Below, in pieces: positions 13,029 through 15,862 of a DNA stretch of 15,862 nucleotides. The stretch is from a virus, in the UHGV virus genome UHGV-0076425; one strand, 5' to 3'. How positions within the stretch are numbered: position 1 is the stretch's first letter; the number at the start of each line of letters is the position of its first letter. Both the position numbers and the translations under genes were made by a program. Below the pieces are notes generated by a model, which was given only the letters and a program-made list of their open reading frames with translations, did no database searches and was not told where the DNA came from.

Positions 13029-13190
13029 CGGAATTGAGCAACACCCTAAATTTGGGTATTACCTCGTTAAAGATACTGTATTTATGAAGAGTGTATCCTT
13101 GATAACTATTAAAAATCGCAGTAAGTTCATCCTGCATCAACGAAAAGGGAGTGCAGTCCCGCTCGTGGATAAAAATTTGTGGAGAAACCA

Positions 13191-14006
13191 ATGAATCAGT
13201 TGCTTGTAATTGATGGCGTTTCTGTGCGCCAGTACTTCGAATCTAACTACTGTCTTAACGACCTTCAGAAAGCTGCTCTTCTTGCCGCTGGTGAGAATCG
13301 CTCCTCCCGTTCGCTGGAAGTTCACGAGTTTATGCGTCGTCCTGAAACGAAGGCTCTTGTGGAATTATTGGAAGAAGAAACTACGGGAGATTCCCGTAGT
13401 ATTCCTGTCATCACCATTCAGGGGCGCAATGGTGGGACGTATGTCTGTAAAGAGCTGGTCTATGCATATGCAATGTGGATCAGCCCGGCATTCAGCTTAA
13501 AAGTGATACGTACTTTTGATGCGCTTCATAATTCATCACCAGAAGAAACCACATCCGACAAAATTAAATCCGGGGTCATTCTGCTTGAATCAGCAGCAAA
13601 GACTCTAAATCTGTCAAACTCCTCGAAACTTGGTGCATACCAGAAATTATCAAAGGTAGCTGGTCTTCCTGAACTTATGCCGATCTATGCCATTGATGCA
13701 CCTGCTGATGCGCCAGATGGTTCAAGCCGCCCTACGCTGTCGCTGAGTGCACTGCTGAAGCAGTATGGTATCCGCCTGACGGCTAATCAGGCATATCACC
13801 AGATGGCGAAGCTGGGGATCGTTGAACAACGCGAACGATACAGCCGTACCGCGATTAACAACATCAAAAAATTCTGGTCGCTGACAGCGAAAGGCTGCAT
13901 GTTCGGCAAGAACATCACCAGTCCTGCAAATCCGCGCGAGACGCAGCCGCATTTCTTCGAATCCCGATTCCCTGAGCTGTTAAAGCTGCTCGATACCGTT
14001 CATTGA
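13191..14006 (+). CDS. KilA-N domain-containing phage protein
   Basis: N-terminal region with GTYVCKELVYAYAMWISPAFSLKVI is typical of the KilA-N (APSES-like) domain; the ATG at 13191 has a GGAGAAA Shine-Dalgarno; preceded by a 160-bp AT-rich intergenic region. Confidence 0.75.
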   Translation: MNQLLVIDGVSVRQYFESNYCLNDLQKAALLAAGENRSSRSLEVHEFMRRPETKALVELLEEETTGDSRSIPVITIQGRNGGTYVCKELVYAYAMWISPAFSLKVIRTFDALHNSSPEETTSDKIKSGVILLESAAKTLNLSNSSKLGAYQKLSKVAGLPELMPIYAIDAPADAPDGSSRPTLSLSALLKQYGIRLTANQAYHQMAKLGIVEQRERYSRTAINNIKKFWSLTAKGCMFGKNITSPANPRETQPHFFESRFPELLKLLDTVH

Positions 14007-14007
14007 G

Positions 14008-15003
14008 GTGACCGTGAGAGCACTACTGACCCCTGAAATCGCCCCGCGTATGGGGATCGTATTGTTCAGGCCAGGTTCAGAGCTGATGCCCCTGTTTATG
14101 CAGGGGCGTGTCCTGCTGGAGCCTGAGCCGGAACGTTATTCATCTTTTGCCAGTGGTGCCGTTCCGGCATCATCACAACCGCTGGCGGATGATCCTGCCG
14201 TTCGGGCCGTGTTCCGCCATGAGGCGGTGATCCGTCGTGCTGGTGGCGTGGAATGCCTTGAGAGCTGGTTACTTCGTGAAAAGGGCTGTCAGTGGCCTCA
14301 TTCCGACTGGCACAGCGAGAACATGACCACAATGCGGCACGCGCCAGGCGCAATCCGTCTGTGCTGGCACTGTGACAATCTTCTCCGTGACCAGTTCACG
14401 GAACGGCTGGAAGCAATGGCAACGGATAACTGTGCCCGCTGGGTGTTGTCTGTTGTGCGCCGTGATCTTGGTTTTGATGACAGTCACGTTGTGACAATGC
14501 CGGAACTGTGCTGGTGGCTGGTTCGTAATGACCTGGCGGATGCTTTACCGGAAAGTGCAGCCCGTAAGGCCCTGAGATTACCGAAGCCTGTTTTGCCGTC
14601 TGTCACCCGGGAGAGTGACCTTGTACCTTCGGTTACTGCCACCAGTATTATCCGGGATAAAGCGAAAAAGGTGCTGGCGCTGAAAGTGGATCCGGAGTCG
14701 CCGGAGTCTTTTATGTTACGCCCCAAACGTCGTCGCTGGGTTAATGAAAAGTACACTCGCTGGGTTAAGACGCAGCCGTGTGCATGTTGTGGAAAGCCAG
14801 CTGATGATCCGCATCATCTGATTGGTCACGGCCAGGGTGGTATGGGGACAAAAGCGCATGATCTCTTTGTGTTGCCTTTGTGCAGAAAACACCATGACGA
14901 ACTGCATGTGGATACCGTGGCATTTGAAGAGAAGTATGGTTCCCAACTGGAGCTGATATTTCGTTTTATCGATCGCGCACTGGCGATTGGTGTGCTGTCC
15001 TGA
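14008..15003 (+). CDS. DUF968-family prophage protein with C-terminal HNH-like Cys/His motif
   Basis: 331 aa; C terminus CACCGKP...DPHHLIGHGQGGMGTKAHD...PLCRKHHDELH resembles an HNH-type zinc-binding nuclease motif; GTG start. Confidence 0.65.
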   Translation: MTVRALLTPEIAPRMGIVLFRPGSELMPLFMQGRVLLEPEPERYSSFASGAVPASSQPLADDPAVRAVFRHEAVIRRAGGVECLESWLLREKGCQWPHSDWHSENMTTMRHAPGAIRLCWHCDNLLRDQFTERLEAMATDNCARWVLSVVRRDLGFDDSHVVTMPELCWWLVRNDLADALPESAARKALRLPKPVLPSVTRESDLVPSVTATSIIRDKAKKVLALKVDPESPESFMLRPKRRRWVNEKYTRWVKTQPCACCGKPADDPHHLIGHGQGGMGTKAHDLFVLPLCRKHHDELHVDTVAFEEKYGSQLELIFRFIDRALAIGVLS

Positions 15004-15020
15004 TTTTGTGGAGAAAGTTG

Positions 15021-15413
15021 ATGCGTGATATTCAGATGGTTCTTGAACGCTGGGGGGCATGGGCGGCAAGTGGTAACACCGGGGTGGACTATTCTCCGAT
15101 AGCTGCTGGATTTAAAGGCCTTTTACCATCCACCGCTAAACCTCGCCCGGCCTGCAGCGATGATGACGGCCTTATCATCGAAAACTGCCTTACGCGCCTG
15201 AAGAAGAAAAAACCGGACGAGTATTCGCTGCTGGTAGCTCATTATCTGCTGCGCATATCAAAAAGGCAGATTGCCAGAACAAGAAAGAAGAGCGAAAAGG
15301 CAATACGAATTGAGATGCAGATTGCTGAAGGATTTATTGACGGATGTCTGTCGATGCTGGGTGTAAGGCTGGAGATGGACGACTGGCTGCCCAAAAAAGT
15401 AAAAAATGATTAG
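15021..15413 (+). CDS. Q: Late-gene antitermination protein Q (QuuD-type)
   Basis: Track start is a TTG at 15006; the ATG at 15021 has a GGAGAAAG Shine-Dalgarno. N terminus MRDIQMVLERWGAWAA matches the short Q-type antiterminators of E. coli prophages as recalled; followed by an intrinsic terminator. Confidence 0.8.
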   Translation: MRDIQMVLERWGAWAASGNTGVDYSPIAAGFKGLLPSTAKPRPACSDDDGLIIENCLTRLKKKKPDEYSLLVAHYLLRISKRQIARTRKKSEKAIRIEMQIAEGFIDGCLSMLGVRLEMDDWLPKKVKND

Positions 15414-15473
15414 CGCGGTCCGCAAAAAGTATGTCAGTATGTTAAGAGTGGTTACTACGCCACACAACTTAAA

Positions 15474-15495
15474 CCCGCCGCCTGGCGGGTTTTTT
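15474..15495 (+). terminator. Intrinsic terminator downstream of Q (candidate tR' or operon terminator)
   Basis: CCCGCC-GCCT-GGCGGG stem-loop followed by T6. Confidence 0.8.
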
Positions 15496-15614
15496 ATGAC
15501 TGAAATCGCATCAGTACAGTAAACGTGCTGGTGGTGAATACCTGTCTTTCAGCTTGCTGGCTTTTTAGACAAGAGTTATTGGTATGTCACGTTAACCGGA
15601 AAAGGGAAAAAGAC

Positions 15615-15812
15615 ATGCTAAAACAGCAGGATATGACAGAAACCGCCAGAGTGGTGTTTAATGAATTAAGCGTTACCGAACCGGCGACAGTCGGGGAGAT
15701 AGCGCAGAATACTTACCTTTCACGCGAACGCTGCCAGTTAATACTGACCCAGCTGGTTATGGCGGGTCTGGCAGACTATCAGTTCGGTTGTTACAGACGC
15801 CTTCCGCAGTGA
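15615..15812 (+). CDS. Hypothetical small protein (65 aa), possible winged-helix fold
   Basis: Track ORF 15525..15812; the ATG at 15615 is preceded by AAGGGAAAAAG; the stop codon is embedded in a downstream terminator stem. Confidence 0.5.
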   Translation: MLKQQDMTETARVVFNELSVTEPATVGEIAQNTYLSRERCQLILTQLVMAGLADYQFGCYRRLPQ

Positions 15813-15821
15813 AGGCTTTTT
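15798..15821 (+). terminator. Intrinsic terminator
   Basis: GCCTTC-CGCAGT-GAAGGC followed by TTTTTTATTT. Confidence 0.7.
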
Positions 15822-15862
15822 TATTTGTGGTAAATGGGCGGCTGGTGGGTGTGGTGGTTGTT

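Follow-up and report, generated by a model that had tools for sequence, protein, structure and literature searches.

A putative Q-dependent late-gene switch, with a winged-helix gene between two terminators, in a lambdoid Escherichia coli prophage

The window analysed here is a 15,862-nt stretch of the virus genome UHGV-0076425, and the element in question occupies its end (positions 15414-15821), directly after the stop codon of a Q antiterminator gene. The last 2.9 kb of the window encodes, all on the plus strand, RusA, a KilA-N protein, a DUF968/HNH protein and Q. Q is followed by the proposed late promoter (pR'), a first terminator, a gene for a protein of 65 amino acids (aa) and a second terminator. 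An earlier note, made from the sequence alone, had proposed a Q-dependent late regulatory region at this place, and the proposal is supported by homology to the mapped PR' promoter of Sakai and by the late genes of a 99.5%-identical genome. The features are listed below; signed numbers count from the putative transcription start site (TSS), and QBE stands for Q-binding element.

15021-15413, plus strand: Q antiterminator gene, Q21/Q933W family; start ATG 15021, stop TAG 15411-15413
15393-15407, plus strand: A-rich tract at -54 to -40, candidate UP-like element, inferred from conservation
15415-15423, no strand: palindrome GCGGTCCGC, centre -28, then A5 (15424-15428); candidate QBE from conservation of position and symmetry
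15428-15443, plus strand: tandem 8-bp repeat AGTATGTC/AGTATGTT in the promoter spacer, overlapping the -10
15435-15440, plus strand: putative pR' -10 hexamer CAGTAT, homologous in position to Sakai TATCAT
A15447 (range 15444-15447), plus strand: putative pR' transcription start, transferred from the Sakai PR' TSS
15448-15463, plus strand: predicted 5' hairpin of the nascent late RNA, +2 to +17, from RNA folding
15471-15495, plus strand: terminator 1, proximal tR', +25 to +49, hairpin and T6
15571-15589, plus strand: leader box AAGAGTTATTGGTATGTCA, upstream of the ribosome-binding site of the 65-aa gene, conserved in the Klebsiella homologue
15615-15812, plus strand: gene for the 65-aa winged-helix protein (predicted fold), phrog_331, first late gene; ATG 15615, TGA 15810-15812, AGGGA 8 nt upstream
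15799-15822, plus strand: terminator 2, +353 to +376, found by consensus scan, overlapping the stop TGA 15810-15812
15832-15852, plus strand: conserved AAATGGGCGGCTGGTGGGTGT, in relatives the 5' arm of a hairpin ahead of the methyltransferase gene

The Q protein belongs to Pfam family PF06530 (E 2.8e-52, 176 bits against a cutoff of 26), which holds both Q21 and Q933W (Yin et al. 2019), and it also matches phrog_79. It is 47.7% identical to the Q of 933W/Sakai and 93% identical to the Q of several Stx2 (Shiga toxin 2) phages. Against the solved Q21 structures it aligns over residues 8-86 only (E 1.4e-7), and its C-terminal DNA-reading part gives no alignment to Q21. The start is annotated as TTG 15018 in a near-identical genome, versus ATG 15021 here. 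A 38-aa open reading frame (ORF) at 15406-15522 was rejected because it is not conserved in frame or is without any match.

The evidence for a promoter behind Q comes from Sakai. The window sequence at 15440-15479 (TGTTAAGAGTGGTTACTACGCCACACAACTTAAACCCGCC) has a clear homologue directly behind the Q gene of 933W/Sakai-type Stx phages (TGATAAGAGTGGTTACATTGCCACGCAGTCGAACCCGCC). In Sakai, differential RNA sequencing (dRNA-seq) located the PR' start and Term-seq the 3' end of StxS, with a distance of 258 nt between them (Sy et al. 2020, PMC7547250). Since the StxS 3' end must fall in the terminator U-tract at L090:998-1003, the Sakai TSS lies at L090:741-746 (prophage Sp5). The coordinate offset between two genome versions would make it A746 and place the 3' end exactly at the last U. 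The Sakai -10 hexamer TATCAT ends 7 nt upstream of the mapped start and 3 nt before the motif AAGAGT, and the window hexamer CAGTAT lies at the same distance upstream of the conserved AAGAGT. The -10 of the window is therefore inferred at 15435-15440 and the TSS at A15447, which may shift by about 3 nt to about 15450 if TATGTT (15438-15443) serves as the -10. The earlier note had been unable to place either promoter hexamer; the -10 can now be given a position, and it remains true that no -35 is recognisable. The use of AAGAGT itself as the -10, together with the tandem repeat as QBE, was rejected since the mapped Sakai start falls inside AAGAGT.

The promoter is also supported by its relatives. 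A census of 71 distinct upstream sequences gives the pattern TAnnnT for the hexamer at -12 to -7 (T in 62/71, A in 70/71 and the final T in 68/71); the window allele is the sole common one with C at -12. Farther upstream, most relatives keep an A5-8 tract at the position of 15393-15407, also when it is separated from Q by 1-1.7 kb of foreign DNA; the tract is possibly a UP-like element of pR'. The pR' block tracks the Q type although many relatives have 0.8-1.7 kb of foreign DNA between the block and Q. By its homology to Sakai PR' and by TAnnnT, not by a consensus match, a late promoter appears to be present just downstream of Q.

The foreign segments of 0.8-1.7 kb sit exactly between the Q stop and the pR' block (L002, L003, L058-L083, L097 and L099-L101). 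They carry mostly reverse-strand genes, such as an OmpC/NmpC-type porin gene in ev243; phiP27 has a plus-strand GIY-YIG nuclease gene. In these relatives a hairpin usually stands directly after Q, and the pR' block is still joined to a duplicate of the final 10-20 nt of Q (AAAAATnAnTAnCG).

The initial transcribed block (15440-15470) is near-invariant between Q subtypes that share only 48% identity, and +1 to +24 is conserved. Among 28 distinct promoter-to-terminator variants, about 25 have a predicted 5' hairpin like that of the window and of Sakai. Terminator 1 consists of a 9-bp stem AAACCCGCC/GGCGGGTTT (15471-15479/15484-15492), the loop GCCT and T6 (15490-15495), and lies 58-82 nt past the Q stop, where the earlier note had seen a canonical terminator at 60-80 nt. 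It folds with -15.6 kcal/mol (z = -3.9, 0/200 shuffles as good). It escaped the consensus terminator scan, probably since pairing of the flanking A3/T3 can lengthen the stem so that it reaches into the T-run. An RNA running from A15447 to the U-tract would measure 49 nt and is predicted to fold as the 5' hairpin and the terminator hairpin (+25 to +46). The T-run falls at 47-51 nt in 26/28 variants and at 58 and 60 in the other two; the terminator hairpin is at the same distance in about 23/28, with loop and stem changes that keep the pairing. The whole short RNA folds with -19.6 kcal/mol in Sakai versus -21.9 in the window, and the first hairpins are of similar predicted stability. Sakai Sp5 has a hairpin and U7 at +25 to +49 of PR' (L090:775-800), homologous to terminator 1. 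A 49-nt RNA would drop out of ordinary RNA-seq libraries, and a 49-nt PR' RNA of Sakai may have escaped through size selection.

Terminator 2 is formed by GCCTTC-CGCAGT-GAAGGC (15799-15816, a 6-bp stem and a 6-nt loop) followed by T6 (15817-15822). Like terminator 1 it is a GC-rich hairpin directly followed by a U-tract, and it does overlap the stop codon of the 65-aa ORF as the earlier note had described. Taken alone it is the weaker of the two and marginal (-8.9 kcal/mol, z = -2.1, 9/200 shuffles as good). The hairpin is kept in the Klebsiella and Salmonella homologues with compensatory and wobble changes; the U-tract is degraded there and is present only in the E. coli/Shigella lineages.

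The downstream genes were read from a 99.5%-identical E. coli chromosome (L001) that extends past the window end. The order there is the 65-aa gene, a small pseudogene fragment, a SASA esterase gene (nanS-p), DUF1378, DUF826, holin, lysozyme, Rz and terminase; the lysis genes which the earlier note had expected beyond 15862 are thus present in that genome. Because of these genes the region is read as the late-operon start of a lambdoid prophage built like an Stx phage.

With a probability of about 0.8, the region serves a lambdoid E. coli prophage as its Q-dependent late-gene switch, the Q being of the Q21/Q933W family. RNA polymerase would start at pR' (-10 CAGTAT at 15435-15440, start near A15447). 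Without Q, most transcripts would stop at terminator 1, giving a 49-nt RNA with two hairpins, and those that leak through would allow translation of the 65-aa winged-helix protein before stopping at terminator 2. Q would bind the promoter DNA, most probably at the palindrome GCGGTCCGC centred at -28, and, going by family knowledge, load onto a polymerase paused close to the promoter, so that both terminators are read through. The late genes reached would be nanS-p and those for lysis and morphogenesis, and in sister phages with the same Q also the methyltransferase, tRNA and stx2 genes. The first product of the late transcript would be a winged-helix protein of the DNA-binding type, with a possible role in controlling or assisting the methyltransferase gene usually found behind its own.

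Several points weigh against this reading. The consensus scan of 14000-15862 found no sigma-70 promoter, so that of two approaches suggested by the earlier note, promoter prediction and alignment, the first came back empty and the second revealed the homology to Sakai PR'. At 16-18 bp from the window -10 no -35 can be made out; together with the C at -12, this may mean that the promoter is weak or that the start lies 3 nt further downstream. A sigma-dependent pause element, expected in 15440-15470, could not be assigned there; TACTAC at +7 to +12 (Sakai TACATT, mEp390 TTCTTC) resembles a -10 no more than weakly. Compared with the QBE of phage 21, the palindrome is placed some 10 bp farther upstream and is symmetric, not tandem; its distance could not be reconciled with the loading geometry of phage 21. 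The association between palindrome and Q subtype could partly be due to linkage. The link between the 65-aa protein and the methyltransferase is weakened by the generic nature of its winged-helix matches and by the absence of the methyltransferase in this lineage. Finally, the Sakai homologue of terminator 1 is read through in lysogens, where the 258-nt StxS precursor spans the hairpin, and the tR' of the Sakai authors is the distal terminator, at +258 (PMC7547250). Since the Sakai equivalent of terminator 1 is read through and its tR' is distal, both window terminators would lie in the Q-controlled path. The earlier suggestion that one of the two is the tR' on which Q acts therefore holds as regards a tR'-type role and is refined as regards the choice between them.

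The gene between the terminators is truly coding. Of its 32 variable sites, 22 are at third codon positions, and synonymous to non-synonymous changes stand at 23:11 versus an expected 23% (p = 3.6e-8). Homologues 81-100% identical are found in E. coli, Shigella, Salmonella, Klebsiella, Citrobacter and Buttiauxella, with 27 invariant columns across the six genera, which meets the earlier concern that the small ORF might lack conservation. C40 in the recognition helix and C59 in the wing are invariant in 24/24 aligned homologues. A 95-aa version starting at GTG 15525 was rejected since the leader indels of relatives are not multiples of three.

The AlphaFold model of the protein has a predicted local distance difference test (pLDDT) score of 90.1 and the order H1-b-H2-H3-wing (helices 4-16, 26-33 and 37-49, wing 53-62), which is the canonical topology (H1-b1-H2-H3-b2-b3) of a winged helix-turn-helix; the model thus bears out the winged-helix resemblance noticed earlier. 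Its TM-score (template modelling score) to IclR-type N-terminal domains is 0.8. The structural neighbours (E about 1e-3) are generic: they comprise the DNA-binding domains of IclR and MarR as well as dimerisation domains of methyltransferases. The sequence matches phrog_331 (E 1.4e-37, residues 1-64), a family that has no assigned function. It is a narrow family, with 61 representative clusters in 1.8 billion proteins by exhaustive HMMER search, and the same search gave no informative distant relatives. Searches of Pfam, NCBIfam, PADLOC, PDB by sequence, PDB by Foldseek and BFVD gave generic or sub-threshold matches only. The label of TrmB family (PF01978) was rejected at 18.0 bits against a gathering threshold of 25.6; the Pfam matches to MarR_2, HTH_24, DprA_WH and Rrf2 were also below threshold, and NCBIfam gave nothing usable. 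A literature search found no paper that studies the homologue L23 of phiP27.

In most relatives a gene for an N6_N4 DNA methyltransferase (about 350 aa) lies about 150 nt downstream of the 65-aa gene. The 65-aa gene is the first after tR' in phages of three different Q families, and the pairing with the methyltransferase spans these. Going by this distribution, the gene would best be described as the first late gene of a module of winged-helix protein and methyltransferase, orphaned in the window lineage. That the protein controls or assists the methyltransferase gene is a guess. The earlier note had placed the ORF where lambdoid phages often carry cargo (moron) genes; the position stands, whereas the gene appears to be a conserved first late gene more than a sporadic passenger, and no promoter of its own was found. 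Full autonomy, with a promoter in the 120-nt leader, the terminator behind the gene and expression in lysogens independent of pR' and Q, is unlikely. The gene does have its own terminator, it is absent from mEp390 and phage 21, and the conserved leader box at 15571-15589 has no assigned function. On the other hand, the consensus scan gave no sigma-70 promoter match at the leader box or elsewhere in the leader, the gene always comes directly after a tR'-type terminator in the orientation of the late operon, and any expression in lysogens could equally stem from leakage at terminator 1, as for StxS in Sakai. By analogy with StxS, such leakage, itself proposed on comparative grounds, is a possibility for how the winged-helix protein would be made in lysogens.

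The leader box is kept in Klebsiella, where the remaining leader is unrelated. Two motifs of the window's pR', AAGAGT and GTATGTCA, recur in it with their order exchanged. The box may serve as a binding site or as an RNA element, or the resemblance may be due to chance.

The palindrome GCGGTCCGC is the element to which Q binding can best be assigned. The longest palindrome is centred at -28 or -27.5 in 52 of the 71 upstream sequences, and is followed by an A5 or AT4 tract in relatives. Its letters switch with the Q subtype; its position and dyad symmetry remain constant. At least nine palindrome types were found, including:

GCGGTCCGC: the window clade including mEp390, with more than 10 different flanks
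GCGGCCCGC: L068-type Q, nearest to the window-clade Q of L062
GCGTACGC: mEp460, SfII and Stx2a_1447
GGAATTCC: phiP27
TGTTATAACA: a Q most similar to that of phiP27 (lower score)
TGTCATGACA: another palindrome, also with a Q most similar to that of phiP27 (lower score)
TTTACGATCGTAAA: 933W and Sakai
TTTACGTACGTAAA: ev243 type
ATTCGT-T-ACGAAT: a Q distantly similar to that of the window (score about 350-370)

A putative helix-turn[loop]-helix region of Q, whose boundaries were set by analogy with Q21 and which does not align with the Q21 sequence, is conserved within palindrome subtypes and different between them. From these comparative patterns, the palindrome at -28 is probably the best candidate QBE of the Q933W branch; no published definition of a QBE for the Q933W type turned up in a literature search. 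The wider proposal, that Qs of this branch recognise a dyad-symmetric element at -28, each subtype its own palindrome, and load as symmetric dimers, unlike the tandem-repeat mode of Q21, is tentative and has slightly less than an even chance of being right. As a corollary, promoter activity in the window's subtype, which lacks a -35, might itself require Q at -28. The pattern of palindrome and Q subtype is the sole part of the analysis that goes beyond the textbook. If the proposal holds, the palindromes would be a readable specificity code for which Q switches on which late operon, stx included, and if the match between palindrome and Q subtype is real, the specificity of a Q could be read from sequence alone.

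The QBE might instead be the tandem repeat AGTATGTC/AGTATGTT, as in phage 21, with the palindrome acting as a -35 substitute or as the site of another factor. Like the phage 21 QBE, the repeat consists of two adjacent 8-bp direct repeats, set at nearly the same distance from both the Q stop and the -10; a loading geometry like that of phage 21 would put the QBE nearer to the -10 than the palindrome is. The repeat is, however, confined to the window's own allele group. It is missing in at least nine spacer variants whose Qs are 71-79% identical and share the palindrome, and apart from the -10, which itself forms part of the repeat, the sequence there is unrelated. The C-terminal DNA-reading part of the window Q also fails to align with Q21. 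The tandem repeat was dropped as a phage-21-type QBE; it is probably not the QBE, and the whole alternative is quite unlikely.

It is very improbable that terminator 1 merely ends the early Q operon and that the true late promoter lies in 15496-15614 or past terminator 2. The same scan that gave no consensus sigma-70 promoter between Q and terminator 1 gave none downstream of terminator 1 either, and the block that precedes terminator 1 shares homology with the mapped PR' start of Sakai and has the conserved TAnnnT. Many relatives do have a terminator directly after the Q stop, and these still carry the pR' block further downstream, just before the late genes. That the segment between the terminators acts mainly as a regulatory RNA like StxS or IsrK, and not through its protein, can be given hardly any weight: the segment occupies the StxS position of Sakai, has a weak full-length isrK match (15422-15495) and as a long RNA folds better than shuffles (z = -3.8), yet it has a strong protein-coding signature and a confident predicted fold, shows no sequence similarity to StxS, and its isrK match (RF01394) was rejected, as it scores 16.5 bits where the threshold is 50 and owes its alignment to the terminator hairpin alone. 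Rfam gave sub-threshold matches only, those to isrK and STnc370 being explained by the same hairpin.

The window lineage also differs from its closest relatives beyond terminator 2. Phages with a 93%-identical Q have the order DUF968, Q, 65-aa gene, DNA methylase, three tRNAs, stx2AB and yjhS/nanS-p. The sequence AAATGGGCGGCTGGTGGGTGT is invariant in the E. coli, SfV, Klebsiella and Salmonella homologues and belongs to a hairpin with the arms GGCTGGTGGGTG...CACCnGCCAGCC, whose G-U wobbles pair only on this strand; the window retains the 5' arm only. The homology of the window to its methyltransferase/stx sister phages stops at 15852, a mapped breakpoint inside this conserved hairpin. Past 15852 (L001:9853 onward) the sequence joins DNA that is found after stxB and before nanS-p in Stx phages. 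Because the homology breaks at 15852 into post-stxB DNA, the methylase-tRNA-stx block is absent in the window lineage, and the prophage appears to be a version of an Stx2-type phage that has neither the toxin nor the methylase. Another joint appears to lie at terminator 1. From there onward, and not upstream, the DNA is shared with SfV (250-aa Q), Klebsiella (Q of PF06323) and Salmonella (DUF1133-type Q), which points to terminator 1 as a recombination joint between phages of different Q families.

The genes upstream of Q were also inspected. The DUF968/HNH gene (14008-15003; phrog_96, ydfU-like) lies directly upstream of Q and also adjoins Qs of other families, PF06323 in Klebsiella and the DUF1133 type in Salmonella, so that the pairing of DUF968/HNH with Q looks conserved whatever the Q type. 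The KilA-N protein (13179-14006) matches the PADLOC candidate defence model PDC-S22 (E 7.6e-10, residues 67-122).

Several Stx2a and Stx2d phages have the Q/pR' type of the window immediately ahead of stx2, and the window would hold the same switch minus the toxin block. The start site, the -10 and the candidate Q site are concrete targets for mutagenesis, and their assignment helps in predicting whether, in a cell with more than one prophage, the Q of one may trans-activate the late (toxin) operon of another. The 65-aa gene is itself of interest: enterobacterial prophages widely carry it as their first late gene, and it has no known function.

The closest known system is the PR'-tR' region of Sakai and 933W (Sp5, Sp15). 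The Q belongs to the same family, although the Sakai and window Qs are only 47.7% identical, and homology covers about -6 to +46 (TGnTAAGAGTGGTTAC...GCCAC...AACCCGCC, with hairpin and U-tract). The -10 and the start are in the same positions and a second terminator lies a few hundred nt downstream in both. The Sakai/933W palindrome TTTACGATCGTAAA is centred at -27.5 and supplies a -35-like TTTACG, whereas GCGGTCCGC in the window comes with no -35. The segments between the terminators are unrelated, with a 258-nt StxS precursor in Sakai and a 65-aa protein gene in the window.

Phage 21 (record OL657228) has a Q stop, -35, QBE, -10, TSS, pause element and terminator, and an RNA of about 50 nt. 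Its Q is in the same Pfam family, and the order and spacing of Q stop, promoter with the (in the window, candidate) Q site between the -35 position and the -10, start and terminator are alike, as is the RNA of about 50 nt. The phage 21 QBE, in contrast, consists of two adjacent 8-bp direct repeats at -27 to -12 where the window element is a palindrome at -32 to -24, and phage 21 has a TTGACA -35 where the window has none.

The lambda 6S RNA and the IsrK-orf45 system of Salmonella Gifsy-1 (Hershko-Shalev et al. 2016, PMC4825925) resemble what is proposed for the window in that a short RNA comes from a promoter just past a Q-type gene, an intrinsic terminator ends this RNA, and the read-through transcript carries a small ORF. 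For the 65-aa protein the counterparts are orf47 of SfV and L23 of phiP27 (phrog_331), which are of the same protein family, come first behind tR' and are followed by an N6_N4 methyltransferase gene; they have been auto-annotated as 'TrmB family transcriptional regulator', and the methyltransferase is missing in the window lineage. Overall, the window region is homologous to the PR'-tR' region of Sakai/933W and would work like that region and the phage 21 cassette.

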